Shown here piece by piece: positions 130 to 50,788 of a DNA stretch of 64,000 nucleotides. This DNA is from Escherichia phage vB_EcoM-ZQ1. Where the stretch lies: sequence record MW650886.1, one strand, 5' to 3'. A model generated the notes under the pieces. That model did not search any database. It was not told the DNA's origin and saw only the letters and a list, made by a program, of their open reading frames with translations. How positions within the stretch are numbered: the first letter of the stretch is position 1; each line of letters opens with the position of its first letter. The position numbers and the translations under genes were made by a program.

Positions 130-618
130 TTATGCCAGTTTGCTCACCAGAGCTTCAACTGCGTCGGCGCTCAGTTTACCCATTTTGACGTACTGAGCTT
201 TTGCTTCGCCACCAACAGCTTTCACGATGTCGGTGTTGTCGTACCCCTTCTTAGGGAAGACCATCACAGAGAAGGAACCGTTGTTCAGCGGGTTCAGCTG
301 GATGCGACCTTTACCGACTACGATGGTGCCGTAAGTTTCGGTGCTTGCTTCGACAATGTGGATGTCGTGACCCAGGTTTTTCAGCATACCAACTTTGTCG
401 GCAGTCTTAGCAACCACAGCTTTATCAACCACAACCTGCTCTACCAGGGTGAAGCCGTTAGTCACTTTCACTTTACCGTTCAGCAGGTTCATGAAGGAAG
501 TTTTACCACCAGTGAAGCCAGCTGCCTGAGCGATGCGGAACATTTCAACTTTAGCAACTTCGGTGTTCAGTTCGAAAGAGATGGTGCCGTTGGTGATCAG
601 AGTTTTGGTAGTAGCCAT
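130..618 (-). CDS. hypothetical protein (163 aa)
   Basis: ORF with AGGAA-type RBS before ATG at 618; the track's longer N-terminus is the conserved leader read in frame; no recognisable motif. Confidence 0.55.
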   Translation of the reverse strand: MATTKTLITNGTISFELNTEVAKVEMFRIAQAAGFTGGKTSFMNLLNGKVKVTNGFTLVEQVVVDKAVVAKTADKVGMLKNLGHDIHIVEASTETYGTIVVGKGRIQLNPLNNGSFSVMVFPKKGYDNTDIVKAVGGEAKAQYVKMGKLSADAVEALVSKLA

Positions 619-691
619 GATGTAATTCCTCATAATGTAGTTGGTGCGTTTCACTTTTCATTCGGCGGTGTGTTGCCGCCCTATGTGAACT

Positions 692-720
692 ATAATAGTG
701 CATCATTATTGAAGAGTAAA
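692..720 (-). promoter_or_regulatory. T4-type early promoter (-35 TTTACT, -10 TATTAT)
   Basis: minus-strand TTTACT - 17 bp - TATTAT upstream of gene 130..618. Confidence 0.45.
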
Positions 721-767
721 GTCTTTTTCAATAATTTTTAAAAATTATTTTTGAAGTATTTTAAAAG

Positions 768-3121: not shown

Positions 3122-6100
3122 TCAGATCTTAATCTGCATGTTGCCACCCAGGGACTGCTCGTACTCGCTGTATGCGCCTTCCCCGTAGTCTCGTGCCCAC
3201 TGGTCAGACTGCTGGGCGCTATCCAGAGTCATCAGGTTTGGTTCAGTCGGGTTGTAACCCTTGGACTTCGCATCCCGGTACAGAGTCTGCAGGTACTGGT
3301 TGGCGCGGTCAATCTGAGCTTTGAACTCGCGATATGCCCCTTCAGTTGTGTTGCGGCGGAAGGTGATATCCCAGTCCACGTTCAGAGTCTGACCATCACG
3401 GCTTGCATAGATCTGCCAATCCAGGTCGCGGCCTTTTGGTGCGTTGTCGCGGATGGAGTCGGCGTATGCCGCAAGGTCGTCCTTCGGATTGTGCGACGTG
3501 CTTTTCAGAAGTAGTGCATGACCCATACCACCGTTTGGCTCAAGAGACCATTTTCCTGTTTCTCTTCCCAGGCGTTCTATGTTGTTGAGTTGGTTTATCG
3601 ACAATTCAGAAGAGTCAAATAATACCACATCACGTTTTTTGGGGGTTCTCACATAAGGGGTGAGATCAATGTCGATCATCCGGTTTATAAATTCTACCAC
3701 TTCAGCTTGTTTCTTTGGCAATGTGGTATTGATATCCGGCTTGTTTGCCACTTTCTCTAGGCGTTTATTTTCTGCGCTTATCATGGACAGCATAATTTGT
3801 GTAACTTTGCCGTCAGACAAGTTGTAATCATTCCAAATCACTTCACCTTTATCCGTGATGGTTATATCGTTCAAGAACACCTGGTTTGGGTTGTATGACT
3901 GACTTTTCAACTGTTGGAGGTTTCTGGAAAGATATACCATTTTTGATGAAATCTCATCAATCACACTCTGGACCATATCTTTGTTTAAAGGAAGTTCATA
4001 TGTCTTCGGATTGTTCAGGGTACGCCCTTTCTGAGAGACAATTGGGGTGAATGCAACTTTACCTTTGTCGTAGTAATAGGTCACGTTGGTTATCATAGAA
4101 GTACCGGCGTATTTTCCCGTTTCGGGGAAATTGACATCCCACCGAATGGACATGCCGTTGACAGTCTCACCAAACACCATGGCGTTGCTTGGTATCTTCA
4201 GGGTTCCAGAGTTGACCAGATCAGCGCCTTGGGCATTCAGGTCGATAGAACCATAGATAGCCCCGGTAATACGATCTTTCAACATCAGGGTCTTGTCGCC
4301 CTTCTCTGGGATGATTTCCAGCGGGTGCTTGCCACGCGGAGGTTCTTTGATGAGTTCCAGTAGAGCAGTTTTCCCTGGTTTCACACGATTCAGGACAGCG
4401 TCGGACACTGTCAGAGTCCAGTTTGCGGTTTCCACATAACCCCAGCCCCGAGAACGGCGAATGGCTTTGATAGGATATGGAGCGCTTGTTGGCACTGCGC
4501 TAATTTCCCATTTGCCAGTGTACTGGGTCTTGGCAACCTCAAAGATGGACGCAATTACTGCATTGGCGACGTCACGGGCGCTACCTTTGGCCACGTTCTC
4601 CTCTTCAGCAATTTCGCTGAAAACTGAGTATTGAACGAAACCAGCGAGGACGTTTGTGAAGTTGACAACGATAACCAACCCGCCTGCTGTCGTGTAACGA
4701 CCAGCGCCCACACGACGGATGTTTTCACCAGGAAGAATAGAAGTGTCCAACCCAACGTTGGTATCAATGATACCCAGAACACGAGCGATGAAACCACTGT
4801 CACGTAATTGATCAACACTGGTTGCACCCTCGGTCGAATCCGATGCGGATTTAGACACTTTGTTCAACTTGATAGAGACAAGGGTTTCCCCGTTGACACC
4901 GATGATATCCCATTCAGTACCCTGCTCGTTCGAGGTGCGGGCAATCTTGCGCTTTGAATTGATGGCACCTTCGTAACGCCCGTTCTTGACCACAACAGAG
5001 GCAGTAGCAGCATCAGTCGCACTTGCTGCATTTGAAAAGTCTGGGTCAGAAATACTGATGTCGACGTCACCGTTTTGAGAACGCATGCGAACACCGTTTT
5101 TGAATCGTTCAACGTTTACTTCTCGAGCACCAAGTCGTTTGGCATCAATAACAGCAGTTCCAGAACCGATAATGTTGGCTGGGTTATTTCTGTCTGAACT
5201 GTTTTGAGAACCTTTCCAAAATTTTGTAGACGCCATGGTGAAATCATTCAGGATATTGATAGGGACTTGCGGTAATTTCAACTGACGAGCAATGAAATCA
5301 GCACTTTGCCCACGCACAGGTTTCTCATTCATGTATGCGCCAACATACACGCCCGGCTCATTGTAGTGGGGAGCGATATTTGCCGTGTTCGTGCGGCCTC
5401 TCTCCTTACCAGCCCATAACAACATGGGCTGATCCCCGTTTGAAGTTAATTTCCATCCGTTGCCATTGCTGGTGTCATTGCTGGTGTCATTGCTGGTGTC
5501 AACGTCCACCACCAGAATTATCTGAGCACCTTTCTTGAAAGTGTACTGATCGTACATACCTTTCTTCTGTTTGGTCATGGACGCACCGACCAAGTCTTGG
5601 TTGGTGAAGCCGCGCTTCATATTCCAAGATACCTCAGTCCCGTCTGGATATTTGTCAAAATCATAACCATAGAATGTGGCTACTTCTTTCGAACCGCTTA
5701 TCAGACGGACGTAATTTCCACGAATCGGGTCTCGCCCGCTCTTCAACTCCAGACCAGTGTCCGAGCTGTTGTACCACTCGCGGTTGACTTCTATTTCAGA
5801 AGAACCAGCCCCAACTCCCACATCCGGAGTATTGTTCTGAACCGGAACGTCACCGACTTTGTCTGGATCATCCCAGGTGATACCCTGCATCTTCGGACCG
5901 TCGAATACCTGAGCCGGATCTTTACCCTTACGAACTAGCCACACATAACCACGGTCAGGAACAGGCGCGTAGGTCAGGTCCATGACGTTCAGTTTCTGCT
6001 TCAGGCCGGACTGGCGGATGATCTTAGGAATCAGGGTCATACCGCGATCCAGCGCTTTCTTAGAGAAGTTGACAGCAAAGCCATCGATGGTCTTACCCAG

Positions 6101-6412
6101 AGGGGTCGCCATGAATTGTTTGGTCGCTTCGATCATGGAAGCGATAACGCGCATTGGGTTCTTGAAGCGAGCGATGGCGTCAGGATAGACGGAGCCGCGC
6201 TTCTGGCCGATGAAAACCTGACGAACGCTCTTGCCCAGCCCCTGAGGAGTATAGAACTGAATGCGGTATTCCTTATCATCTTCGTCGACGAAGGTAAAGA
6301 ACACATCGCCTGCGTTCTTCTTACCCATGGTCAGCTCATACGGAGCGGAGTTGAACGCTTCGTCTAACTGATCTCTTTCCTGCATGAACTGGAGGAAACT
6401 TAGCTTTGACAT
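3122..6412 (-). CDS. large hypothetical protein (1096 aa) with internal (DTSN)x3 repeat
   Basis: long uninterrupted ORF; no polymerase or ATPase motifs seen; CTAATTA late-like motif upstream. Confidence 0.6.
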   Translation of the reverse strand: MSKLSFLQFMQERDQLDEAFNSAPYELTMGKKNAGDVFFTFVDEDDKEYRIQFYTPQGLGKSVRQVFIGQKRGSVYPDAIARFKNPMRVIASMIEATKQFMATPLGKTIDGFAVNFSKKALDRGMTLIPKIIRQSGLKQKLNVMDLTYAPVPDRGYVWLVRKGKDPAQVFDGPKMQGITWDDPDKVGDVPVQNNTPDVGVGAGSSEIEVNREWYNSSDTGLELKSGRDPIRGNYVRLISGSKEVATFYGYDFDKYPDGTEVSWNMKRGFTNQDLVGASMTKQKKGMYDQYTFKKGAQIILVVDVDTSNDTSNDTSNGNGWKLTSNGDQPMLLWAGKERGRTNTANIAPHYNEPGVYVGAYMNEKPVRGQSADFIARQLKLPQVPINILNDFTMASTKFWKGSQNSSDRNNPANIIGSGTAVIDAKRLGAREVNVERFKNGVRMRSQNGDVDISISDPDFSNAASATDAATASVVVKNGRYEGAINSKRKIARTSNEQGTEWDIIGVNGETLVSIKLNKVSKSASDSTEGATSVDQLRDSGFIARVLGIIDTNVGLDTSILPGENIRRVGAGRYTTAGGLVIVVNFTNVLAGFVQYSVFSEIAEEENVAKGSARDVANAVIASIFEVAKTQYTGKWEISAVPTSAPYPIKAIRRSRGWGYVETANWTLTVSDAVLNRVKPGKTALLELIKEPPRGKHPLEIIPEKGDKTLMLKDRITGAIYGSIDLNAQGADLVNSGTLKIPSNAMVFGETVNGMSIRWDVNFPETGKYAGTSMITNVTYYYDKGKVAFTPIVSQKGRTLNNPKTYELPLNKDMVQSVIDEISSKMVYLSRNLQQLKSQSYNPNQVFLNDITITDKGEVIWNDYNLSDGKVTQIMLSMISAENKRLEKVANKPDINTTLPKKQAEVVEFINRMIDIDLTPYVRTPKKRDVVLFDSSELSINQLNNIERLGRETGKWSLEPNGGMGHALLLKSTSHNPKDDLAAYADSIRDNAPKGRDLDWQIYASRDGQTLNVDWDITFRRNTTEGAYREFKAQIDRANQYLQTLYRDAKSKGYNPTEPNLMTLDSAQQSDQWARDYGEGAYSEYEQSLGGNMQIKI
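5463..5498 (-). repeat. in-frame 12-bp tandem repeat x3
   Basis: cattgctggtgt repeated three times, encoding DTSN-DTSN-DTSN. Confidence 0.8.
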
Positions 6413-6487
6413 TTTATATCTCCTGATTGAATTAATGGCGGTTTCTTCTAATTAGCGAAACCAAAAGGGAGCGTCAGCCCCCTTATC

Positions 6488-6823
6488 TTATTTTTGAACT
6501 TGGGCTACAGACATCGCCCAGAGCGGGAGGGTGTGGGGGTCCAGGGCTTCCAGTAGATATTCGACGCGCTCTGACATGATACCTTCAGGGAAGTTTACTT
6601 CTTCTGGTTCGTTGTTGGCCGTCCAACCCAATGTCAGTCCTTCAGCGTGATGGATGATATAAACGAAGTCGTCTGGTTCGTAGTCCTTTTCCATCAGGGC
6701 GAAGAAATCTTCCATTTCTTCGTCGGAGAAGTAGTAGATGCGAGGTACAGAGCCGTCAGCAAAGTGCTCAGCACCCTGGAAGGCAAACATGTCATCGGCG
6801 GTGAAGTTCTTGAGTTGTGTCAT
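6488..6823 (-). CDS. hypothetical early protein (111 aa)
   Basis: ORF with conserved leader ...GGAACTATATC-ATG and upstream early promoter. Confidence 0.55.
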   Translation of the reverse strand: MTQLKNFTADDMFAFQGAEHFADGSVPRIYYFSDEEMEDFFALMEKDYEPDDFVYIIHHAEGLTLGWTANNEPEEVNFPEGIMSERVEYLLEALDPHTLPLWAMSVAQVQK

Positions 6824-6871
6824 GATATAGTTCCTGCTTTTCAAGTTGGTGTCGTACTGCTTATGGAATGA

Positions 6872-6900
6872 AGTATAGGAAAGGATATTGAAGAAGTAAA
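6872..6900 (-). promoter_or_regulatory. T4-type early promoter (-35 TTTACT, -10 TATACT)
   Basis: TTTACT - 16 bp - TATACT on minus strand; same cassette as at 39977 and 50705. Confidence 0.5.
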
Positions 6901-6914
6901 GGGGCGAAAGCCCC
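6901..6914 (-). terminator. stem-loop terminator
   Basis: ggggcgaaagcccc hairpin flanked by T-rich sequence. Confidence 0.45.
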
Positions 6915-6929
6915 TTTTATTGAATTATT

Positions 6930-7568
6930 TTACGGCGTCGGATTCACAACCGGAATGTGGGATCGAATACCTGCGATGATGTCCTTCAGCCGAGGATTCC
7001 ATCCACCCACCAAACGGGGGAGAGCGATAGCGCCAGGCTGGACCAAAATGATGTCGCTGCCTGTGATATTGTGCTGAGGGAACTGAGCAAGGTACTGCTC
7101 CATGGCGACACCCTCATCAATCAGAACAGGACCGACATCAGATGACGCGTAGGTTGCACCCAGACCGTCAACGCCCCATGCCAAGATACCCCAGTCAGGG
7201 ATGTTGGCTTCAGATGTGATGGTGAATCCAAACACGGTGTTCAGCGAAGTAAAGGAATAGACATCGTGGGTGATGTCATACACCAGATACCCCTTGGCCA
7301 GCATATCGGCAAAGATCGCGTCCGTATCGCCAACAGCCGGAGTCGGCACAGTAAACAACAGCTCGCCATCAGGAGGAGCAGGATACGTGCCGAGGGCATA
7401 GAGGCACCATGCATCAATGCACTTCTTAATGAACGCCTCTGGCGCGACATAATCAGCAAGGCGAACCGTACCTGAGTACTCTGATACGATAATGCCTTCC
7501 TTCGCACCCTGTAGAGCAATGAAGACCAAGATATGTTCATATCCGGCCTGAGATGGAGTGATGTTCAT
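6930..7568 (-). CDS. hypothetical protein (212 aa)
   Basis: ORF; internal ATG 7568 overlaps stop of upstream gene. Confidence 0.5.
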   Translation of the reverse strand: MNITPSQAGYEHILVFIALQGAKEGIIVSEYSGTVRLADYVAPEAFIKKCIDAWCLYALGTYPAPPDGELLFTVPTPAVGDTDAIFADMLAKGYLVYDITHDVYSFTSLNTVFGFTITSEANIPDWGILAWGVDGLGATYASSDVGPVLIDEGVAMEQYLAQFPQHNITGSDIILVQPGAIALPRLVGGWNPRLKDIIAGIRSHIPVVNPTP

Positions 7569-8182
7569 TATCTTGTCCTCTTCAGTTTCTCTATTGTGTG
7601 CTTGTTCATGGCGATCACCTGAGGATCTACCTCGGAGATGGTCCGGCCTTCGAAAGACACACATTTCTGAAGATATTTAGCTTTCTTCACGACGTCGGCA
7701 GCATAAGCGTTCGATGCAGGATTACGGGCGAAGCCAGCATTGTAAGAGGAGAGGGATTTGCGGATATTCTGATTGTGATAGGTCAGCCAGAACTGCATCT
7801 CATCGAGGGCGGCTTGCGCGGCATATTCTTGGTCGGTCAGCAACTTTATGGCGACATTGGCATAGCACTTGCGATTCTTACAACCTTCGCGATCACCAAC
7901 TGTCTTCACCTTGTTCTGAAAGGCTCCCATGTTGGCCGCCTTGAGACCGTATCGCATTGACACTACATCTTCACCAGCGCGGCTCTCTCGCCAAGATATG
8001 GCGGCCAGAGTGTAGCCAAGATCTTGTGTCTTGCCTACGTGATAGGCGGTTGCCATCGTATTAAGTTGTTGCTCGGAGAAATTATAAACACATTGACTTG
8101 TATTTTGGGAAGCGTGCACATTCCCGCTGGCAATGGTAAAGGTCACGGACAAGGCCATGGCCTTCAACGTTGTCATCGTCAT
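7568..8182 (-). CDS. secreted protein, possible lytic transglycosylase-like
   Basis: N-terminal signal-peptide-like segment; weak ES...GAFQ motif. Confidence 0.4.
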   Translation of the reverse strand: MTMTTLKAMALSVTFTIASGNVHASQNTSQCVYNFSEQQLNTMATAYHVGKTQDLGYTLAAISWRESRAGEDVVSMRYGLKAANMGAFQNKVKTVGDREGCKNRKCYANVAIKLLTDQEYAAQAALDEMQFWLTYHNQNIRKSLSSYNAGFARNPASNAYAADVVKKAKYLQKCVSFEGRTISEVDPQVIAMNKHTIEKLKRTR

Positions 8183-8278
8183 GATGGCGTTCCTTATGTT
8201 TGTCGACTTGCAGCTCGATTGAGCCTCCTGACAGGGGTTAAAAGATAAAGGGCACGTGATATTTAGTGCCCTTCAGCC

Positions 8279-8563
8279 TCATTCGTAGATGAGGTGGTAG
8301 GATTCCTCGATACACTCCAGCCAGCCATAGACGAACTGTAGAGGGTCATCCCATGCCGTCTTGGTCGCGACGGTAAAGTTGCCGTCCAGGATCTGCATAT
8401 CTTGGTACTTGTTGAAAGCGAGTACAGCATCAACCACAATCAGGCCGCCCTGCTCAAGATAACGATTCGGAGTGACGGCCACTTGGTAACGAGGATTCCT
8501 GTGATTCCATATCTCCACAGCAATGTCACAGGAATCCTGAATTTCATCTTTGGTTTCTGACAT
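8279..8563 (-). CDS. hypothetical protein (94 aa)
   Basis: ORF in same-strand gene run. Confidence 0.45.
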   Translation of the reverse strand: MSETKDEIQDSCDIAVEIWNHRNPRYQVAVTPNRYLEQGGLIVVDAVLAFNKYQDMQILDGNFTVATKTAWDDPLQFVYGWLECIEESYHLIYE

Positions 8564-8873
8564 ACGTTTGTCTCAGGTGTTCAGTAAAGGATTTACCCAG
8601 CTTGCGGAATAGTTTAATACGACCAATGACTTTGACGTAAACATCTCCGTGGCAGGGGCGTGGCTTACACCAGCACCCCAATACCTTCCCGTCAAGCTCA
8701 AGGAGTTCATCCTCGGTGATATCCCCTTCAATCAGGCGCACATACAGGTCTTCTTCAAACAGTTCGATACAGACGCCTCGTCCATGGTCTTTGACCTCAA
8801 ATGGGTTCCCCCATTTACCAGGCCGACCAATGTAGACGTCATATGGCTCCTTCTTGAAGTGGACGACTTTCAT
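8544..8873 (-). CDS. DUF4326-like conserved phage protein
   Basis: HFKKEPYDVYIGRP..WGNPF ... CWCKP.PCHGDV motif pattern. Confidence 0.4.
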   Translation of the reverse strand: MKVVHFKKEPYDVYIGRPGKWGNPFEVKDHGRGVCIELFEEDLYVRLIEGDITEDELLELDGKVLGCWCKPRPCHGDVYVKVIGRIKLFRKLGKSFTEHLRQTYVRNQR

Positions 8874-8874
8874 T

Positions 8875-9033
8875 TCAGGATTTGACCTGCAAGTAGATAA
8901 CAGAACCAGACAGAGAACCCGAGATACCCCAGTGCTTTCAGGTAGTTTTTCCTTTCGACTTCACGAGAAAATGCAATGATGTCAATGATGCATGCAAAGA
9001 CCAGGATTGCGAGTTTAATTTGTTCGTAGTTCA
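8875..9033 (-). CDS. small hydrophobic protein (52 aa), not in ORF track
   Basis: ATG at 9033, hydrophobic core, fills gap between flanking genes. Confidence 0.3.
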
Positions 9034-16414: not shown

Positions 16415-16693
16415 TTACTTGCCGTTGGCAGCGTTCTTCAGACCTTCGCCCACTTTGAATTTCACAACGTTTTTCGCCGCGATCTGAATGGTCTGGCCAT
16501 TCAGAGGGTTGCGACCTTCACGCGCTTCTTGGTGTTTCACTTCGAACGCACCGAAGCCGACCAGCTGTACAGATGCGCCTGCAGCAACTGCAGTTTTAAC
16601 ACCGTCGATAAAGGATGCCACTACTTTCTCCGCTTCGCCTTTGGTGATGTTCTGGGTCGAAGCAATGTGGGCAACAAATTCAGTACGATTCAT
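16415..16693 (-). CDS. HU-like histone-like DNA-binding protein
   Basis: near-canonical HU sequence (VQLVGFG.F.V ... R.GRNP..G ... I.I.A). Confidence 0.9.
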   Translation of the reverse strand: MNRTEFVAHIASTQNITKGEAEKVVASFIDGVKTAVAAGASVQLVGFGAFEVKHQEAREGRNPLNGQTIQIAAKNVVKFKVGEGLKNAANGK

Positions 16694-17260: not shown

Positions 17261-17923
17261 TTACACCTCCACCGCGTGAGACTTCAGGAGTTCATCAATC
17301 TCTTTCTGTCCCATGTATGAGAACGGGGTGCGCTGGTAGAACGCCCAGAGTACTAACTGGACAACAGCACGGGAACGGGTTTCGGCCGTCATCACCAGGC
17401 CACTGAAATGAGGAGACTCAGCTGTCCATTGTATATCTTCGCCCAGGTCTTGATTACAGGTCACCGAGATGCGGAACTTGTTGCACAGATTGTCGACTTC
17501 TTTGTACGCATCGGTAGACACACGAAGTTGTTCCGCATGTACCCACGGAGTTGTGATGATTCTTTCACCCAACGTCTTTTCTGAAACGAACCAATCAATA
17601 GATTGGGTAAACTCGCTGAAATGGTCGATACGATAAATGCAGTCTCCCCCTTCCATAGAACGCATGGCATGATAGCGAGCGTCGATTTCGTTGTTGTGCA
17701 TCGCGTTGAAGTCGATGAACACGCGACGCGCCAGCACAACATCTTCTGGTTGAAGTGCCAGGAAATCGTTCAGGCGGCTATAATGGAGGATATTGGAACC
17801 GTCGTGGCCACGTGTGCAATATGCGTAATGGCTACCGATACGGGCGTGGGCAATATAAGACAACGGGGCGAAGAATAATCCGTCAGGATCAGGACCGACG
17901 ATAATAGAATAAAGTTTTTCCAT
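17261..17923 (-). CDS. hypothetical protein (220 aa)
   Basis: internal ATG 17923 preceded by conserved ...GACTATATC-ATG leader. Confidence 0.5.
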   Translation of the reverse strand: MEKLYSIIVGPDPDGLFFAPLSYIAHARIGSHYAYCTRGHDGSNILHYSRLNDFLALQPEDVVLARRVFIDFNAMHNNEIDARYHAMRSMEGGDCIYRIDHFSEFTQSIDWFVSEKTLGERIITTPWVHAEQLRVSTDAYKEVDNLCNKFRISVTCNQDLGEDIQWTAESPHFSGLVMTAETRSRAVVQLVLWAFYQRTPFSYMGQKEIDELLKSHAVEV

Positions 17924-17979
17924 GATATAGTCACTCAAATGAAAGGGCAGCTTTATGATAAGCCGCCCGAGGTTATTGA

Positions 17980-19926: not shown

Positions 19927-19955
19927 ATGATAGGCGGCTCACCATGATGAGTAAA
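19927..19955 (-). promoter_or_regulatory. T4-type early promoter (-35 TTTACT, -10 TATCAT)
   Basis: TTTACT - 17 bp - TATCAT upstream of gene 19212..19898. Confidence 0.4.
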
Positions 19956-19977
19956 GGGATTCAATAAACTATCGTAT

Positions 19978-20651: not shown

Positions 20652-20907
20652 TCAGGATACGAGCGGTGTCGAAAGTTTCCCCGCCCGTGTTCAGCAGCTT
20701 GGTTAGATCATCAAGAGTACCGACAGGGCCAAGATCAGATGACCGCGATATAAACTCCAGCATGCCATACAACGCTGTTTGGAATCGGCTGTTGTCGATA
20801 TCGTTCTTTATTACCATCAGGCGCAAGATGTTCTCTGACTGAGTATGGCCAACACACGCCTTGTCTCTGATCATCTCCTTGATAGAACTTCTCTCTGATG
20901 GTGTCAT
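20620..20907 (-). CDS. hypothetical protein (95 aa)
   Basis: ORF. Confidence 0.4.
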   Translation of the reverse strand: MTPSERSSIKEMIRDKACVGHTQSENILRLMVIKNDIDNSRFQTALYGMLEFISRSSDLGPVGTLDDLTKLLNTGGETFDTARILIDGGPEEDEV

Positions 20908-21278
20908 AACGTACCCCCGACAGAGATCAAGAACTCTTCTTGCATGGTCTTGACCGGGTGGTGGTTGCGGGTTTCGAACATGAAGCCCCAGCCACCGTCG
21001 GCGACGTTACCAAAGGTCTTGACACCAAAGGACTTCGTCCCGTTGGAGCAGGAATAGATGTCCAGGACGTATGGGCTACCCTGATTGTCGATCCCACGAT
21101 TCACGTCGTCTGATACACAGCGCTCAATCATCTTCCCGTTCTTATACAGAACGAGGTCTTGACCATACGCCTTGAAAGCATAAACACCGTTGGTAGACAC
21201 TCCGGTGATGACAGGAGGGGCGGAAACAGCAGCAAAGGAAGCGCCTAGCAGGGCAACAGCGAGGATTAACTTTTTCAT
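20904..21278 (-). CDS. secreted protein (124 aa)
   Basis: conserved leader ...GACTATATC-ATG; signal peptide MKKLILAVALLGASFAAVSA. Confidence 0.5.
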   Translation of the reverse strand: MKKLILAVALLGASFAAVSAPPVITGVSTNGVYAFKAYGQDLVLYKNGKMIERCVSDDVNRGIDNQGSPYVLDIYSCSNGTKSFGVKTFGNVADGGWGFMFETRNHHPVKTMQEEFLISVGGTL

Positions 21279-21302
21279 GATATAGTCTCTTGGTTTCAAA
21301 TG

Positions 21303-21324
21303 GGCGGGGTATGATTACCCCGCC
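21303..21324 (-). terminator. stem-loop terminator (repeat copy)
   Basis: ggcggggta-tgat-taccccgcc hairpin; near-identical copy at 21863. Confidence 0.45.
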
Positions 21325-21330
21325 GTGGGT

Positions 21331-21837
21331 TTATAGGGTAACAAGTGATACGGTAAAAACCATCGTCCCGTCTGTTGCCATTTTTCTTGAAACTGGTATG
21401 ACGCGAGGCTGGCAGAATATCCATTCTTTCTCCATGGACGCCAAGTCCAGCATATCCATTTCTGATTCATCGCCTTTGTTCACAAATTTTTCTAGAGAAC
21501 CATAGACATTAAGCCCCTCCGGGAGTCTGTTTCGATGTTTGTAACAAATGCGGGCAACAGCTTTGGTTCCGTACGATTTAGAAAATTTTTTGGCCACATG
21601 CTTCAGTTCACTGAAGCTAAGACAAGAATCCCATGTCTGGAACATGTCGCCTCGTTCAAACATCATCTCTAAACGCGCAACGTCCTCTTTAGGCAGCCCG
21701 CGATAAAGTGTGGTCGTCTGTGGTTCGCGCAATTCTTGCACCAGATCACGGACGGCAGGGGAAACAGTACCGGGGCGCATGATGTGGGACTTATCATGGA
21801 CGAGGTAAAATAAATCTTGAATTTGTTGATCAGTCAT
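21331..21837 (-). CDS. hypothetical protein (168 aa)
   Basis: conserved leader ...GGAACTATATC-ATG. Confidence 0.5.
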   Translation of the reverse strand: MTDQQIQDLFYLVHDKSHIMRPGTVSPAVRDLVQELREPQTTTLYRGLPKEDVARLEMMFERGDMFQTWDSCLSFSELKHVAKKFSKSYGTKAVARICYKHRNRLPEGLNVYGSLEKFVNKGDESEMDMLDLASMEKEWIFCQPRVIPVSRKMATDGTMVFTVSLVTL

Positions 21838-21862
21838 GATATAGTTCCTGCATTTCAAATAG

Positions 21863-21884
21863 ACGGGGTAATCATACCCCGCCC
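21863..21884 (-). terminator. stem-loop terminator (repeat copy)
   Basis: cggggta-atca-taccccg hairpin. Confidence 0.45.
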
Positions 21885-21896
21885 AAAGTTATAGAA

Positions 21897-22136
21897 TTAG
21901 CTGATATGCTTCAGAAGAGCGAAGAGGATCACGGCCTTGGCCTTTACCTTTCCTACGATGCCTGTCTCGACATCAACTTCTTCAGCAACCCACTCTTTTC
22001 CCTTCTTGCTGATGATAACGTCACGACGCTGTGCGTAGACTTCTTTGGTCGCATACACACGACGGAACCCTTTAGCGCGGAGCAATCCCCAATTGCGATC
22101 AATCTCTACTGAAGTTTCGACCATTTTGTTCTTCAT
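21897..22136 (-). CDS. hypothetical protein (79 aa)
   Basis: ORF with upstream early promoter. Confidence 0.45.
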   Translation of the reverse strand: MKNKMVETSVEIDRNWGLLRAKGFRRVYATKEVYAQRRDVIISKKGKEWVAEEVDVETGIVGKVKAKAVILFALLKHIS

Positions 22137-22187
22137 GATATAATCTTACCTTTCAACCCGGTGAACCCATCGTTCGCCAGTTATTGA

Positions 22188-22216
22188 ATAATAGGACATT
22201 CCTTAGAGGAAGTAAA
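22188..22216 (-). promoter_or_regulatory. T4-type early promoter (-35 GTTTAC, -10 TATTAT)
   Basis: GGTTTACTT - 17 bp - TATTAT. Confidence 0.5.
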
Positions 22217-22228
22217 CCCCTAAAAGTA

Positions 22229-22254
22229 AAAATCCCCAACGTTTGTTGGGGATT
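22229..22254 (-). terminator. stem-loop terminator (42-bp repeat copy 1)
   Basis: aaatccccaac-gttt-gttggggattt hairpin. Confidence 0.5.
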
Positions 22255-22269
22255 TAATAAAAGTTATGC

Positions 22270-22494
22270 CTATTTAATTTCTCGGCTTGAATTTTCTAGT
22301 TCTAATTTTCTTATAGCAGAAATTCTGCCTTCATCAGTTGCGGGAAACTCCCAAACAGCACGACGCCCGTTGTTGGTATCACAACTTGCCAGCCAGCAGA
22401 AATTAGAGGGGTCCTTAAACAAGACCAATTTAGGGTTAGCAATATTGTTCAGGCAAAATGGGGTGAGGTCAACAACACATGATATAGCAGACAT
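22270..22494 (-). CDS. hypothetical protein (74 aa)
   Basis: ORF flanked by 42-bp perfect direct repeats; start ambiguous between 22494 and 22479. Confidence 0.4.
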   Translation of the reverse strand: MSAISCVVDLTPFCLNNIANPKLVLFKDPSNFCWLASCDTNNGRRAVWEFPATDEGRISAIRKLELENSSREIK

Positions 22495-22543
22495 AATATA
22501 TACCTTCTTTCAATGAACGGGAACGCCCCGCTCTATGAATTCA

Positions 22544-22572
22544 ATAATACGCATTTACATTATAGAAGTAAA
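22544..22572 (-). promoter_or_regulatory. T4-type early promoter (-35 GTTTAC, -10 TATTAT)
   Basis: GGTTTACTT - 17 bp - TATTAT. Confidence 0.5.
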
Positions 22573-22584
22573 CCCCTAAAAGTA

Positions 22585-22610
22585 AAAATCCCCAACGTTT
22601 GTTGGGGACT
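22585..22610 (-). terminator. stem-loop terminator (42-bp repeat copy 2)
   Basis: ccccaac-gttt-gttgggg hairpin. Confidence 0.5.
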
Positions 22611-28178: not shown

Positions 28179-28292
28179 GATGTAATCTTCCTGTTTCAGT
28201 TCAAATGTGCGCCCCGTTTGCCAGGGCGCTTCGTTTAAGTGAGGTCAATATACGCTGGATTGAGTTATTGAAGAACGAAGTAAAGGGAATCT

Positions 28293-30470: not shown

Positions 30471-30935
30471 TTATTCGCTTTTTGCCTTCGTAGGCCGGAT
30501 GATGTATTTTGGAACCAGTTTCCATTCAGGAACCTGATCGTGTTTAACCACTTTAATGCGAGACATATCGGCTGCTTCAGTGACCTGCTCAGGATGAATG
30601 ACCTTCACCATGTTCCACTGCTCCAGCAGCTTGATGATGCGGTTCATCCTCAGGACATCTTCGCGGTTAAATCCGTTGTAATGCCCGTCCAGCATAAATA
30701 GATGCTTAAAGTGGACGATATAATACTTACCACACTTATGAAGAATATGGCAAGTCTGATACAGAGTATTCGGCTCTTGGCGCGTGTTTACCCCAATTCG
30801 ACTCAGTGTTTCCTTGATCCCCAGGAATATACCTGGCCGATCTTGGTTCAATTGAACTTCAACCATACAATCAACGATGCTGGCCTCATCGTTGACTGCT
30901 GAAATATTCAATATGTCTAGCGTATTACGCGCCAT
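30471..30935 (-). CDS. regA: translational repressor RegA-like
   Basis: LYQTCHILHKCGKYYIVHFK and EWKLVPKY match T4 RegA hallmarks; position next to gene 62 as in T4. Confidence 0.7.
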   Translation of the reverse strand: MARNTLDILNISAVNDEASIVDCMVEVQLNQDRPGIFLGIKETLSRIGVNTRQEPNTLYQTCHILHKCGKYYIVHFKHLFMLDGHYNGFNREDVLRMNRIIKLLEQWNMVKVIHPEQVTEAADMSRIKVVKHDQVPEWKLVPKYIIRPTKAKSE

Positions 30936-32381: not shown

Positions 32382-32461
32382 TTCAGCCTCGTGTAGAAGA
32401 ATCATTTCAAATAGGCGGGGAACGCCCCGCCCACACATTATAGCATCAGGCTGGAGATTGA

Positions 32462-39644: not shown

Positions 39645-39926
39645 TTAGAACAAATGCTCGCCTTCCACATGGTATGCTAACACGCCGTCAGAACATTCAA
39701 AATACATGTTATCATATTCCCACAGAGCGGTGATTTCTTCACCCTGGCAAACCACCGAAAACTTCGGCTGGCTGGCCTTAACTGGAAATTTTTCAGGGGA
39801 AGAGATTGGGGTGAATTTGGCATTTCTGACGGCCATACCAACAAATTGCTGCAATGTTACTTTGTAACGAGAGTGGGTGATAGTGCCAGCATTCAGGGCT
39901 TCGATCAATTGCGCTTTAGTTGTCAT
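39645..39926 (-). CDS. hypothetical early protein (93 aa)
   Basis: conserved leader ...GGAACTATATC-ATG and early promoter. Confidence 0.5.
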   Translation of the reverse strand: MTTKAQLIEALNAGTITHSRYKVTLQQFVGMAVRNAKFTPISSPEKFPVKASQPKFSVVCQGEEITALWEYDNMYFECSDGVLAYHVEGEHLF

Positions 39927-39976
39927 GATATAGTTCCTTCATTTCAGAGTCAGTGTTGTGCTGCTTATGGAATGAA

Positions 39977-40009
39977 GTATACGGGGTTTATTGAAGAAGT
40001 AAACCCCGT
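39977..40009 (-). promoter_or_regulatory. T4-type early promoter within a 10-bp-stem hairpin (PeSL-like)
   Basis: TTTACT - 16 bp - TATACT; -35 lies in hairpin acggggttta / taaaccccgt. Confidence 0.5.
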
Positions 40010-40028
40010 ATTCAACTTTTTATTGAAT

Positions 40029-40273: not shown

Positions 40274-40717
40274 TCAGTTGTTAACGCGGAATGCCGCCGG
40301 ATACCCACCTGGATGCCCTTCTCCGGTCACGAAGACCTCGTACCGGGCACCTTTAACCAAACCGGGCAAATTGCCTGAGTCGAGTAGATATCGGATTTTA
40401 TCCATAGTCTCCATCCAGGACTTAGCAGGTTCAGCTTCAGCCTCCCCACGGTTGATTTTGATCACACCCTCTGAATAATACTTCCCACTGTCCTTCATGT
40501 AGTACAGCTTGACGTCGATAAACTGTGGGGATGGAACTTCTGTCCAACCCTCATCGTTCAAATCCTGGCGATCATTGTCGAAACTCTGAAAATCAACATC
40601 ACCGCATGCCAGGCGATAATCTTTGAATTTACGGAAACCTTCCGCCTTGTCCCCAACGGAGCTACGGAAGAACTGTTTCTTGGCGGGACTAATGAAAATG
40701 AAATTCTTGTCACACAT
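40274..40717 (-). CDS. hypothetical protein (147 aa)
   Basis: conserved leader ...GGATCTATATC-ATG. Confidence 0.5.
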   Translation of the reverse strand: MCDKNFIFISPAKKQFFRSSVGDKAEGFRKFKDYRLACGDVDFQSFDNDRQDLNDEGWTEVPSPQFIDVKLYYMKDSGKYYSEGVIKINRGEAEAEPAKSWMETMDKIRYLLDSGNLPGLVKGARYEVFVTGEGHPGGYPAAFRVNN

Positions 40718-40734
40718 GATATAGATCCTTCCTT

Positions 40735-40959
40735 TCAAAGAATGTTGTGTTCGTCGATATCGGACTGCGTTGCAATCTCCCAGCGGACGATGTTCTCGGT
40801 TGTGATGAAATCACGGTTCAGGTGAGAGGCTGGAACATACACCATCGTGTCGACCATGAAGTAACACTGCTCATTGTTACAAGAATCAACGTAAACCTCG
40901 ATGAGGCACACCTCGGCAACACCGGCTTTCGGCTTCTTCACGATCTTTTTCAAGTACAT
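40735..40959 (-). CDS. hypothetical protein (74 aa)
   Basis: internal ATG with GAGGG RBS. Confidence 0.4.
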   Translation of the reverse strand: MYLKKIVKKPKAGVAEVCLIEVYVDSCNNEQCYFMVDTMVYVPASHLNRDFITTENIVRWEIATQSDIDEHNIL

Positions 40960-48474: not shown

Positions 48475-50274
48475 GTGAGGATATTTATTATGCCATTCCC
48501 CGATAAAAATTGTTCATGCTGCCACAAACCGTTCACCCCAACCAGGAAGGCTGCGTTGTATTGTAGTGACGAATGTAAATCATTCATGCTGGGAACGATG
48601 AAACGCAATCCGAGTTTGTTGGATAACATCCCGACGACCGAAACCGAATGCCGCTCTTGGGTTGATAGTAAACTCAGGAAGAAAGATGGTTCGTTGAACT
48701 ACAAACTTATCTCTCATCCCCTACTCACGGCCCATACTGGGGTTGATGTTGTTGGATACGTGGTGTCACACAACGACCTATTAGAAGAACCACAAGCGAT
48801 AACTGCTTGGCTGTACGATATTCCGAAGTCGCAGTGTGTCACTTGCGGTGCTGACGTTGGCTTAGAAATGGAAGCCCAACCACCCAGATACAAAAAGTTT
48901 TGTTCCGAAGAATGTCAACGAGAATCGATGAAGGCGGGAGGCTCAGAACGGACCAACCTAGAAAGCGCCATATCAGAGAAATATGGCGTTTCTAGCACAT
49001 TCCAGCTGGAAGAAGTAAAACAAAAGTCACGGGAAACTGTCCTTAAGAAATATGGGGTCGACCACCCTATGAAGTCTGATGTTATAAAGGACAGAGTGGC
49101 TGCTTCCGTCATGGAACGCTATGGCGTATCACACGTCATGAAAATGCCAGAAGTGAGGGAAAGGGTGATTGAGACTTGGAGGAAGATCTATGGTGTGGAT
49201 CATCCAATGTTCCTCAATTCCATTATAGAAAAGAGAAAGAAAACATGCGTCTTAAAATATGGGGTTGATTATCCGTTGAAGGTAAAGGCTATATGGGATA
49301 GAAGCCAGGTCAATACCAGGATCATTTCAAAAGAAAAATACGGCGTACCTCACTATTTCTCTTCTGAAGAATATAGGAACTCTTTCACGTACCCCAGCAG
49401 CCAAAGCCAAACACAGCCAGAAATAGAAATATGTTCATATCTGGAGTCATTGGGCGTTATATGCGAATCTGGTAATTTCTCCATCCTCAGAGGTAAAATG
49501 TTCGACGGAAGGGTGACCACACGCCAGATAGACATATACTGCCCAGAACATAAGTTGGCAATAGAATTTAACGGCTTGTACTGGCATACAGAGAAACATC
49601 GATACAAAGACTACCATCTTGAAAAGACCATGTACTGTGAAGCCCAGGGTGTTCAATTAATCCATATCTGGGAAGATGAGTGGCGTGACAAACGGGAAGT
49701 GGTTAAATCACTCCTTAAAGCAAAATTGGGGATAGGGAAACCATTGTCATACGCTCGCCAACATACCATTTTAGAAGGCTCCTATAGGACGTCCAAGGAC
49801 TTTCTCGACCGATTCCATATACAAGGTGGTGTGGTGGCGACAGATTATATACACCTTGTAGACAAAACTGGGAATATCCAGGCGGTGATGTTGTTTACCA
49901 AACGAGTGCATGGTATTGAATTGGTGAGATTTGCTTCTAACAATTGTCATGGCGCATTCTCACGCTTGCTGAAATATTATATCGCTCGACATCGGGGTGA
50001 GACAGTATATTCTTTTGGTGATCGTTGTGTTGTCAGTCGTCTGAAAAATGTTTACCTGAATAACGGATTTGTTGAAAAGGAAATCCTTCCCCCTGATTAC
50101 AAATATGTGACTCCGGACTATGGCTCACGTATACACAAATTCAATTTCAGGAAAGAGAAATTCCTTAAACTTGGATACGATGTAGAAGGTAAAACAGAGG
50201 ATATGCTGGCGATAGAAGCCGGGTTGGGGCGTATCTGGGGGTGTGGTCTTATCCGGTATGAACTGGAAAACTAA
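48475..50274 (+). CDS. free-standing homing-endonuclease-like protein (paralog of 41023..42495)
   Basis: plus-strand gene inside minus-strand tail module; same Zn-ribbon, YGV..PMK repeat and Vsr/DUF559-like domain. Confidence 0.65.
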   Translation: MRIFIMPFPDKNCSCCHKPFTPTRKAALYCSDECKSFMLGTMKRNPSLLDNIPTTETECRSWVDSKLRKKDGSLNYKLISHPLLTAHTGVDVVGYVVSHNDLLEEPQAITAWLYDIPKSQCVTCGADVGLEMEAQPPRYKKFCSEECQRESMKAGGSERTNLESAISEKYGVSSTFQLEEVKQKSRETVLKKYGVDHPMKSDVIKDRVAASVMERYGVSHVMKMPEVRERVIETWRKIYGVDHPMFLNSIIEKRKKTCVLKYGVDYPLKVKAIWDRSQVNTRIISKEKYGVPHYFSSEEYRNSFTYPSSQSQTQPEIEICSYLESLGVICESGNFSILRGKMFDGRVTTRQIDIYCPEHKLAIEFNGLYWHTEKHRYKDYHLEKTMYCEAQGVQLIHIWEDEWRDKREVVKSLLKAKLGIGKPLSYARQHTILEGSYRTSKDFLDRFHIQGGVVATDYIHLVDKTGNIQAVMLFTKRVHGIELVRFASNNCHGAFSRLLKYYIARHRGETVYSFGDRCVVSRLKNVYLNNGFVEKEILPPDYKYVTPDYGSRIHKFNFRKEKFLKLGYDVEGKTEDMLAIEAGLGRIWGCGLIRYELEN

Positions 50275-50276
50275 AA

Positions 50277-50292
50277 CCCCGCCTCAGCGGGG
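50277..50292. terminator. bidirectional stem-loop terminator
   Basis: ccccgcctcagcgggg hairpin between convergent genes. Confidence 0.5.
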
Positions 50293-50299
50293 TAAACTA

Positions 50300-50656
50300 C
50301 TATTTGCGAATGCTAACCTGAGCATAATACACATAATAATCACCGTGGGCACGGAAGCTGGTGAGGTGGAAGGTGACGAGGTGGCTCCCGAAAGCTACAA
50401 CTTTGGTATCTGGGGAGCATAAATCATTAGCTAGTTCACCCAGAACCTTACCACAAAACTCCCCAACAATAGCGTTAAATCTGTCAATGTGTGGACTGGT
50501 CACCGTCATTGGACCAACATCTGCACAGTAGATCCCTTTTATCATCTTTCCCTGGCTGTCGCGTACTGGCTTTGCAGGCTGGTAAGGATTGATGCGGCGT
50601 TTCAGGTTACAGAGGCCGATTTCTTTCAGGATAGCGTTAATTTCGGTCTTGGTCAT
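50300..50656 (-). CDS. hypothetical early protein (118 aa)
   Basis: conserved leader ...GGAACTATATC-ATG and early promoter. Confidence 0.5.
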   Translation of the reverse strand: MTKTEINAILKEIGLCNLKRRINPYQPAKPVRDSQGKMIKGIYCADVGPMTVTSPHIDRFNAIVGEFCGKVLGELANDLCSPDTKVVAFGSHLVTFHLTSFRAHGDYYVYYAQVSIRK

Positions 50657-50704
50657 GATATAGTTCCTTCGTTTCAAGTTGGTGTCGTACTGCTTATGTT
50701 TAGA

Positions 50705-50733
50705 ATTATACGTGAGTTATTGAAGAAGTAAAG
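50705..50733 (-). promoter_or_regulatory. T4-type early promoter (-35 TTTACT, -10 TATAAT)
   Basis: TTTACT - 16 bp - TATAAT. Confidence 0.5.
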
Positions 50734-50767
50734 TAATTCAATAAAATAATCTGGGAAAAATTTAAAA

Positions 50768-50783
50768 CCCCGCCGAAGCGGGG
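50768..50783 (-). terminator. stem-loop terminator (identical to 42557..42572)
   Basis: ccccgccgaagcgggg hairpin. Confidence 0.55.
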
Positions 50784-50788
50784 TCTTG

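Follow-up and report, generated by a model that had tools for sequence, protein, structure and literature searches.

In the 64,000-nucleotide stretch of Escherichia phage vB_EcoM-ZQ1 (MW650886.1) analyzed here, which is called the window below, a control unit composed of a hairpin, a predicted early promoter and a leader that runs into the start codon stands in about ten copies before small accessory genes. The window comes from a phage of Ackermannviridae (Aglimvirinae) and, over positions 5000-9000, shares 97.7% identity with Escherichia phage YX22. Judging from the sequence, we consider it probable, at roughly 70%, that these units are early promoter/terminator/leader cassettes of the promoter-early stem-loop (PeSL) type, which express and shuffle accessory genes. 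The feature as such is real and functional-looking. Gene swap, gain and loss at such units is already known for T4-type phages; what is new is their presence in Ackermannviridae.

A full cassette begins with an AT-rich tract containing the octamer TTCAATAA or its complement, continues with a GC stem-loop, an extended -35 box and a -10 box, and ends with a 5' untranslated region (5'UTR) of about 42 nt, in which the blocks CATAAGCAGTACGAC and TTGAAA are followed by AGGAACTATATC-ATG-AC. The minus strand carries nearly all genes of the window, and the cassettes, their relatives and the genes behind them are as follows.

6821-6924, minus strand: full cassette at 6.8 kb, with TTCAATAA (6917-6924), hairpin GGGGCTTTCGCCCC (6901-6914), -35 TTTACT (6895-6900), a 17-nt spacer, -10 TATACT (6872-6877), and a leader of CATAAGCAGTACGAC (6851-6865), TTGAAA (6839-6844) and AGGAACTATATC-ATG (6821-6835)
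6488-6823, minus strand: 111-residue gene behind the 6.8-kb cassette, phrog_9866, function unknown
6465-6484, minus strand: terminator-like hairpin downstream of the 111-residue gene
39924-40027, minus strand: full cassette at 39.9 kb, with TTCAATAA (40020-40027 and 39988-39995), a stem of ACGGGG (40004-40009) and CCCCGT (39981-39986) that encloses the -35 and the spacer, -35 TTTACT (39998-40003), -10 TATACT (39976-39981), and a leader of CATAAGCAGCACAAC (39955-39969), CTGAAA and AGGAACTATATC-ATG (39924-39938)
39645-39926, minus strand: 93-residue accessory gene in the 39.9-kb slot, phrog_10263
50654-50785, minus strand: full cassette at 50.7 kb, with the putative terminator GACCCCGCTTCGGCGGGGT (50767-50785), the inverted pair TTATTGAA (50737-50744) and TTCAATAA (50717-50724) bracketing the -35 TTTACT (50727-50732), -10 TATAAT (50705-50710), and a leader of CATAAGCAGTACGAC (50684-50698), TTGAAA (50672-50677) and AGGAACTATATC-ATG (50654-50668)
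50300-50656, minus strand: 118-residue gene behind the 50.7-kb cassette, phrog_13016, with a putative terminator at 50276-50293
616-734, minus strand: variant cassette, with TTATTGAA (727-734), -35 TTTACT (715-720), -10 TATTAT (692-697), a hairpin after the -10 (664-681) and GAGGAATTACATC-ATG (616-631)
130-618, minus strand: 162-residue gene behind the variant cassette
22492-22607, minus strand: cassette A of a tandem pair, with the same putative terminator as in cassette B (22590-22607), -35 (22567-22572), -10 (22544-22549), TTGAAA (22508-22513) and AAGGTATATATT-ATG
22270-22494, minus strand: 74-residue gene behind cassette A
22134-22251, minus strand: cassette B of the pair, with the putative terminator CCCCAACAAACGTTGGGG (22234-22251), -35 (22211-22216), -10 TATTAT (22188-22193), TTGAAA (22151-22156) and AAGATTATATC-ATG
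21897-22136, minus strand: 79-residue gene behind cassette B
21835-21884, minus strand: half-cassette, hairpin and leader with no promoter (GGGCGGGGTATGATTACCCCGTC, TATTTGAAAT, GCAGGAACTATATC-ATG)
21331-21837, minus strand: 168-residue Alt/Mod-like gene after that half-cassette
21276-21324, minus strand: half-cassette, hairpin and leader (GGCGGGGTAATCATACCCCGCC, CATTTGAAA, CCAAGAGACTATATC-ATG), part of direct repeat D3
20904-21278, minus strand: 124-residue gene after it, with a hydrophobic, signal-peptide-like N-terminus
17921-17968, minus strand: half-cassette, hairpin and leader (GGGCGGCTTATCATAAAGCTGCCC, TTTCATTTGA, GTGACTATATC-ATG), fold z = -4.5
17261-17923, minus strand: 220-residue gene after it
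40715-40739, minus strand: leader only (TTTGAAAGGAAGGATCTATATC-ATG)
40274-40717, minus strand: 147-residue gene after the lone leader
19927-19967, minus strand: same-class promoter (TTATTGAA, TTTACT-N17-TATCAT), followed by an ordinary ribosome-binding site in place of the leader
706-734, 6917-6924, 19960-19967, 22181-22188, 22540-22547, 39988-40027 and 50717-50744: octamer sites

In terms of the promoter, TTTACT-N16/17-TA...T occurs only on the minus strand, namely at 720, 6900, 22216, 22572, 40003 and 50732, with TATACT, TATAAT or TATTAT as the -10 box, and six leader copies sit 45-75 nt downstream of these promoters. The extended -35 reads (G/C)TTTACTTCTTCAATA, also given as (G/C)TTTACTT, and TTTACTTCTTCAATA is found without mismatch three times (6886, 39989 and 50718). 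A sequence-only reading of this DNA had placed promoters of the T4 early type upstream of the leader genes; this is the case in the six cassettes, but a promoter is lacking from the hairpin-leader copies at 17923, 21278 and 21837, and that at 40717 is the leader alone. The same reading had the promoters often inside or next to GC-rich hairpins, and so did we find them: the hairpin precedes the -35 at 6.8, 22.2, 22.5 and 50.7 kb, surrounds the -35 and spacer at 39.9 kb, and follows the -10 at 0.7 kb. For the octamer TTCAATAA, 12 occurrences were counted where 2.3 are expected, 10 of them within promoter cassettes, and the inverted pair TTATTGAA-N12/13-TTCAATAA, which frequently brackets the -35, could be an operator or an UP element. 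TTGAAA in combination with TATATC was also considered as a promoter and was rejected by inspection for its 9-nt spacing.

The promoterless copies with hairpin and leader are half-cassettes. Their stems are stable (-18 to -26 kcal/mol) and are followed by (C/T)ATTTGA(AA), which is TTTCATTTGA at 17923, and then by the leader. Considered as intrinsic terminators, the GC-rich stems are stable at -18 to -20 kcal/mol. Good T-tails follow the hairpins at 50764-50787, 50276-50293 and 22234-22251, while the tail is merely (C/T)ATTT at 21303-21324 and 21862-21884; at 17945-17968 it is TTTCATTT, and the hairpin there passes the terminator scan. The two hairpins at 21303-21324 and 21862-21884 (minus strand) are reverse complements of each other, with TAATCATA and TATGATTA as loops and flanks in the same orientation, and from the sequence the stem-loop appears to have flipped in place. 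At 40715-40739, the TGA of TTTGAAA lies at the expected stop of the upstream open reading frame (ORF), as calculated from its called start and length. We also noticed two degenerate relatives of the half-cassettes on the minus strand: one at 28179-28280, where a hairpin and CATTTGAACTGAAACAGGAAGATTACATC-ATG precede a 672-residue gene, and one at 32382-32430, where a hairpin and TATTTGAAAT precede gp44 with its ordinary ribosome-binding site.

As for the leader, ACTATATCATG with at most one mismatch was matched nine times in the window, all on the minus strand, against 0.87 expected, and none of 100 shuffled sequences reached nine; the motif can also be written as ACTATATC-ATG with one mismatch allowed. 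The same leader had been claimed for at least seven minus-strand starts, and all seven ATGs listed are indeed there, but the copies are exact only at six of them (6823, 17923, 21278, 21837, 39926 and 50656). The copy at 40717 reads TCTATATCATG with one mismatch, so that CTATATCATG, not ACTATATC, is common to the seven. The close variants proposed at 22136 (ATTATATCATG) and 618 (GGAATTACATC-ATG) were borne out. A ninth match, at 22478-22488, is a leader fragment located 14 nt within the 74-residue gene; the true start of this gene, at 22494, has a variant leader of its own, TTGAAAGAAGGTATATATT-ATG. ORFs of 79-220 residues open at the other eight matches and at the 618 variant. When GGAACTATATC plus ATG was allowed up to two mismatches, 8, 10 and 13 matches were obtained in the window, YX22 and phage CBA120, respectively, where 0.4, 0.8 and 0.95 are expected. 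In all three, these matches are nearly all on one strand and at ORF starts, which argues against the motif being equally frequent inside coding regions.

Part of the leader is not peculiar to it. In non-leader genes, G is dominant at positions -11 to -9 and A is commonest at -8 of the start, and ATC is the top triplet before ATG (8-20% versus 1.6% by chance), late structural genes included; ATC before ATG is a phage-wide start-site preference. The leader's GGA (-11 to -9), A (-8) and ATC (-3 to -1) thus correspond to the general start-site consensus of the phage. None of the other 8-mers before ATG, nonetheless, occurs more than twice among the roughly 150-170 genes per genome, and the leader is therefore a true repeat family. 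RNAs of 77 nt covering the 5'UTR and start gave minimum free energies of -2 to -4.9 kcal/mol with z-scores of +0.6 to +2.3, that is, they fold worse than shuffled sequence; no structure was predicted in the leader by this comparison, the 6.8-kb leader being likewise predicted as unstructured, and an Rfam scan of the whole window returned no family at threshold. Such weak predicted folding is a property expected for an efficient start site. We take the leader, as the best reading, to be an ideal start site of this phage that was spread by duplication of the cassette and kept by selection. The proteins behind it, though differing in sequence, mostly start with Met-Thr (MTQL, MTTK, MTKT, MTDQ, MTNK and MTTV; at 6821-6826, 39924-39929, 50654-50659, 21835-21840 and related loci), and the conserved unit, or selection on it, therefore reaches at least +5.

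Similarity among the copies is not confined to the leader. About 60 bp had been described as almost identical among the 6.8-, 39.9- and 50.7-kb cassettes, and 59 nt are in fact common to them; "almost identical" is slightly generous, as the 6.8- and 50.7-kb copies agree at 88% and the 6.8- and 39.9-kb copies at 61% in ungapped comparison, the latter pair being clearly homologous once a 1-nt gap is allowed. Repeats of the window include the families D1, D3 and D4, of which D4 is a 73-nt direct repeat, 84% identical, formed by cassettes A and B.

The genes behind the leader are all small in terms of their products, and Pfam found no family for the ten proteins. PHROGs assigned one of them (21331-21837) to the RNA-polymerase ADP-ribosylase family and the others to families of unknown function. 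Indeed, this 168-residue protein matches PHROG 832, "RNA polymerase ADP-ribosylase", at E = 6e-15, and its homologs are so annotated elsewhere; orf140 of CBA120 is 95.8% identical to it, and the gene is absent in YX22. The 111-residue gene and the hairpin downstream of it (6465-6823) would form a self-contained transcription unit.

The cassettes are conserved throughout the family. Positions 5000-9000 matched 272 phage records of Ackermannviridae, and the 121-nt cassette at 6.8 kb was found in 272 phage records, in 271 of them nearly at full length, with 80-98% identity and, as a rule, at 2-3 sites per genome. An unbiased sample of this non-coding cassette, restricted to the one slot at 6.8 kb in nine genomes of four genera, gave a mean pairwise identity of 85.5% with 70% invariant columns; the final 300 nt of the conserved gene next to it, in the same nine genomes, gave 76.6% and 55%. 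Between the window and CBA120, cassettes are 83-91% identical versus an average of 76% for alignable sequence; the 39.9-kb cassette is about 90% identical to its CBA120 copy over 105 nt, and its flanking genes are 61-80% identical. Sixteen cassette copies from the three genomes were aligned, YX22 and CBA120 having about 8-9 full cassettes each. We also scanned IMG/VR for GGAACTATATCATG; about 100 of the 121 matches were chance matches in unrelated contigs, and the approximately 17 Ackermannviridae matches that were used are biased by the exact-match query.

While the cassettes are kept, the genes behind them come and go. The 111-residue gene is in only 84 phage records and the 74-residue gene in only 31; across the cassette genes, occupancy is 84, 52, 41 and 31 records versus 271-272 for the cassettes, and a slot's occupant is thus found in 11-31% of the family. 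Slot 6.8 holds the 111-residue gene in the window and in Dickeya, Klebsiella and Serratia phages, whereas in Kuttervirus phages its content differs, being another gene in CBA120 and distant homologs (30%) of the 50.7-kb gene in heyday and aagejoakim. The slot accordingly holds at least three different genes among phages, two of the three having been shown to be dissimilar to the window's gene. The cassettes that CBA120 and heyday have in slot 6.8, in turn, are nearly identical to the 50.7-kb cassette of the window. Between the same flanks, slot 39.9 contains the 93-residue gene in the window, a decayed remnant in YX22, and orf176 (154 residues) in CBA120, which gave no tblastn match to the 93-residue gene. 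Only 52 of the 271 cassette-bearing records have this 93-residue gene, and the others show at least three other insert lengths.

Recombination between neighboring cassettes is visible when the genomes are compared. The window and YX22 differ by 11 structural changes, two of which are unit insertions or deletions bounded by cassette repeats. In the window, the elements at 21837 and 21278 flank the Alt-like gene; YX22 has a single element there, the left half of which is the 21837 element and the right half the 21278 element, joined inside ATTTGAAA. Similarly, the 22.5- and 22.2-kb cassettes flank the 74-residue gene, and this 356-bp unit is absent from both YX22 and CBA120, which instead have a chimera joined in the terminator/-35 (YX22) or at the -10 (CBA120). 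By their junctions, the two chimeras at 22 kb are independent events. Chimeric replacements are therefore seen at two loci with three different crossover points. The region of 20.85-22.7 kb is hyperplastic, with only 7 of 177 records covering at least 80% of it, and leader genes are missing from YX22 more often than other genes (4 of 10 versus 2 of 62; Fisher p = 0.003). The recombinational gene shuffling that had been supposed is thus supported by the chimeras in YX22 and CBA120, by gene replacement behind conserved cassettes and by patchy occupancy, and comparative genomics of cassette gain and loss gave patchy cassette genes with cassettes kept family-wide.

These observations suggest how a cassette would work. 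The GC-rich stem-loop would end or attenuate transcription arriving from upstream, the sigma-70 promoters would be fired by unmodified host RNA polymerase right after infection, and the open leader would give efficient ribosome loading; host-polymerase firing and an open leader would therefore give early expression of the small accessory genes, each as an insulated unit of its own. With about 100 nt repeated round the genome and near-constant across the family, the cassettes also act as portable homology. As the comparison of genomes shows, recombination of neighboring cassettes deletes or inserts the intervening gene and leaves one chimeric cassette, and a conserved cassette can also provide the 5' junction at which one gene is exchanged for another.

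Several points weigh against this interpretation. A generic sigma-70 scan of the window showed no enrichment (21 found versus 21.2 expected), and the promoter call therefore rests on extended conservation rather than on consensus score; in the literature, we found no transcriptome or transcription-start map of Ackermannviridae. Only 3 of the 11 differences from YX22 break inside cassettes, which is well above the whole-genome null but not clearly above the intergenic-only null, and the compared genomes show cassette-gene events with no direction, be it insertion or deletion. The decay in slot 39.9 of YX22 went through short microhomology deletions, not cassette-cassette exchange. Furthermore, CATAAGCAGTACGAC, TTGAAA and ACTATATC are near-invariant beyond what a promoter and a ribosome-binding site need, and an extra sequence-specific function is therefore possible.

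One such function has been suggested from the sequence, namely that the repeats are common translational operators of a RegA homolog. The homolog is indeed encoded in the window, together with another candidate regulator:

30471-30935, minus strand: RegA homolog of 154 residues (PF01818, E = 2.1e-34), "translation repressor protein" in YX22
16415-16693, minus strand: DNA-binding protein of the HU family (PF00216, E = 6e-30), named "transcription factor 1" in YX22

In this alternative, TTGAAA-N-GGAACUAUAUC-AUGAC, perhaps with CAUAAGCAGUACGAC, is a candidate RNA operator for the RegA homolog or another RNA-binding protein, which would shut off the accessory early genes together; this could be compatible with the cassettes as PeSL-type units. 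RegA sites of T4 are A/U-rich around AUG and single-stranded, show little sequence conservation and are found on genes of replication (44, 45, rIIB and regA). The leader resembles them in being an A/U-rich, predicted single-stranded sequence across start codons in a phage with a RegA homolog, and the conservation of 5'UTR blocks beyond the ribosome-binding site and start codon in four genera, as well as the rarity of any other recurrent 8-mer before ATG, would agree with an operator. It differs from them, however, in that the repeat of the window is near-identical and stands on accessory genes; the start regions of regA (30935), gp44 (32381) and gp45 (33130), which are classical RegA targets in T4, have no leader, and nothing links RegA to it. 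The GGA, A and ATC positions belong to the general start-site preference, and since the copies are homologous up through the promoter and the tract beyond it, much of their identity is accounted for by common descent. We therefore regard an RNA operator as a tentative and rather unlikely addition. With respect to RegB, Pfam returned nothing beyond a sub-threshold SLT match for the neighboring 204-residue protein (7568-8182).

In a broader form of the same idea, the leader and the TTCAATAA pairs might constitute a shared address label of an accessory early-gene regulon read by a phage factor, which we hold to be doubtful, though worth keeping in mind. The factor could be the RegA homolog acting on RNA, or the HU/TF1-like protein acting on the TTATTGAA-N12/13-TTCAATAA pairs; the name of the latter recalls TF1 of SPO1, which binds modified DNA at early promoters. 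If this is the case, any gene placed behind a cassette would automatically inherit on/off control.

Two further alternatives are each very unlikely. The first concerns the opposite strand, on which CATGATATAGT would be a putative extended -10 promoter (TGnTATAGT) for a short antisense RNA over the 5'UTR and promoter, ending at the hairpin and damping early expression. The reverse complement of the leader does fit TGnTATAAT at 8 of 9 positions in every exact copy, and the hairpin at 6.8 kb has, on the plus strand (6895-6921), a T-rich tail, GAATTATTTT; but the TG arises from ATC-ATG, which is common to start sites of the phage in general, no -35 element is conserved, the 39.9- and 50.7-kb copies have no good terminator tail on the plus strand, and the hairpin-only copies would yield RNAs of very different lengths. 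Searches of YX22 and CBA120 for an antisense partner of the 5'UTR gave only opposite-strand matches of at most 14 nt at E of 0.27 or more, which is the chance level.

The second supposes that the cassettes are sites for a dedicated nuclease or recombinase (e.g., a homing endonuclease) and move in a site-specific manner. The authors on PeSLs also speculated on a helper protein that binds the stem-loop, and the 50.7-kb cassette with its gene adjoins the following ORF in a 2.7-kb block that is absent from YX22 and lies between the tail tube and tail sheath genes:

48490-50274, plus strand: homing-endonuclease-like ORF of 594 residues, with DUF7487 and, weakly, DUF559/REase matched, annotated in PH4 as a homing endonuclease

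The arrangement found here at 50.7 kb also occurs in phage PH4. Between these two tail genes, other inserts are present in YX22 and CBA120, a SegD-like gene in the latter. The other cassette insertions and deletions, however, have no nuclease gene nearby, and their crossovers differ (terminator/-35, -10 and ATTTGAAA), as general homologous recombination predicts and as would be unexpected of a fixed cleavage site. Finally, although part of the leader is a general start-site consensus, repeats arising by chance or as a generic ribosome-binding-site consensus with no shared origin are already refuted by the nine matches against 0.87 expected (0 of 100 shuffles), by similarity over 59-100 nt that includes parts with no consensus role, and by family-wide conservation.

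Apart from the cassettes, we noticed CTAAATA on the minus strand 20-35 nt upstream of structural genes and regA (30935, 35368, 44866, 48408, 57322 and 63794); by its sequence and position, it looks like a late promoter of the family, distinct from TATAAATA of T4.

Should the cassettes be PeSL-type units as proposed, the family would supply about 8-10 predicted early promoters and leaders per genome, and the entry and exit points of accessory genes in otherwise very stable genomes would be explained. The PeSL model of modular gene exchange would be extended beyond T4-like phages proper. Phages of Ackermannviridae are widely used in biocontrol and therapy work, and the cassettes would be ready-made, family-conserved expression slots for their engineering.

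It is also useful to compare the cassettes with known systems. The immediate-early promoters of T4 are said, in work attributed to Liebig and Ruger from 1989, to have a -35 of the GTTTAC type, not TTGACA. The promoters of the window share this -35 type, as well as the TAnnnT form of the -10, a distance of about 17 nt between the boxes and A/T-rich sequence upstream; peculiar to the Ackermannviridae family are the extended -35 TTTACTTCTTCAATA and the repeats of TTCAATAA. Morons of lambdoid phages are autonomous promoter-gene-terminator units inserted between conserved genes, and the 50.7-kb unit between the tail tube and tail sheath genes is alike in this regard; morons, however, have no common repeated regulatory cassette doubling as recombination homology.

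Among relatives of the phage, the CBA120 paper lists eight sigma-70-like promoters only and considers early promoters not identifiable by informatics, the Ag3 paper gives only nine tentative early promoters and lists such hairpins as terminators, and the LIMEstone paper lists five early promoters; a leader or a PeSL-like role is described in none of the three. Three of the early promoters of Ag3 fit the promoter class of the window, one of them in the wrong register. The CBA120 paper also states that ViI-like phages have none of the T4 proteins Alt, ModA, MotA and AsiA, which tune early and middle transcription; contrary to this, an Alt/Mod-like gene is present in the window.

The closest likeness is to the PeSLs, which were described in the T4-like phages RB49/phi1, T4/PST and KVP40/nt-1 (Arbiol et al. 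2010, PMC2839356; Comeau et al. 2014, PMC4122927). By definition, a PeSL contains a strong early promoter of sigma-70-like type, preceded by an AT-rich tract, and extends as far as the ribosome-binding site and ATG; conservation covers about 100 bp, and a G...C stem-loop takes any of five positions relative to the boxes (PMC2839356, PMC4122927). They occur in hyperplastic regions, where a chimeric single element is found in place of an ORF between two elements in a relative (PMC2839356, PMC4122927), and in RB49/phi1, mini-circles and promoter/terminator activity were shown experimentally (PMC2839356). The cassettes described here belong to Ackermannviridae, not to T4-like phages proper. They further differ in that their leader (CATAAGCAGTACGAC...TTGAAA...GGAACTATATC-ATGAC) is near-invariant across four genera and also stands alone behind terminator-like hairpins, and in that the octamer TTCAATAA is added, often as an inverted pair around the -35. 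In every sequence-level feature, nonetheless, the window agrees with the published definition, and the resemblance to PeSLs of T4 that had been noted from the sequence holds feature by feature: the build is the same, with the stem-loop before, around or after the -35, and many copies of about 100 nt are concentrated in hyperplastic regions ahead of small genes whose function is unknown, with chimeras of varying crossovers. The four partial copies of the window resemble the "degraded/half" forms that are included among published PeSLs. Also, the promoters fit the T4/PST consensus TTTACW-N17-TAYWAT (PMC4122927), TATAAT and TATTAT matching TAYWAT exactly and TATACT with one mismatch.

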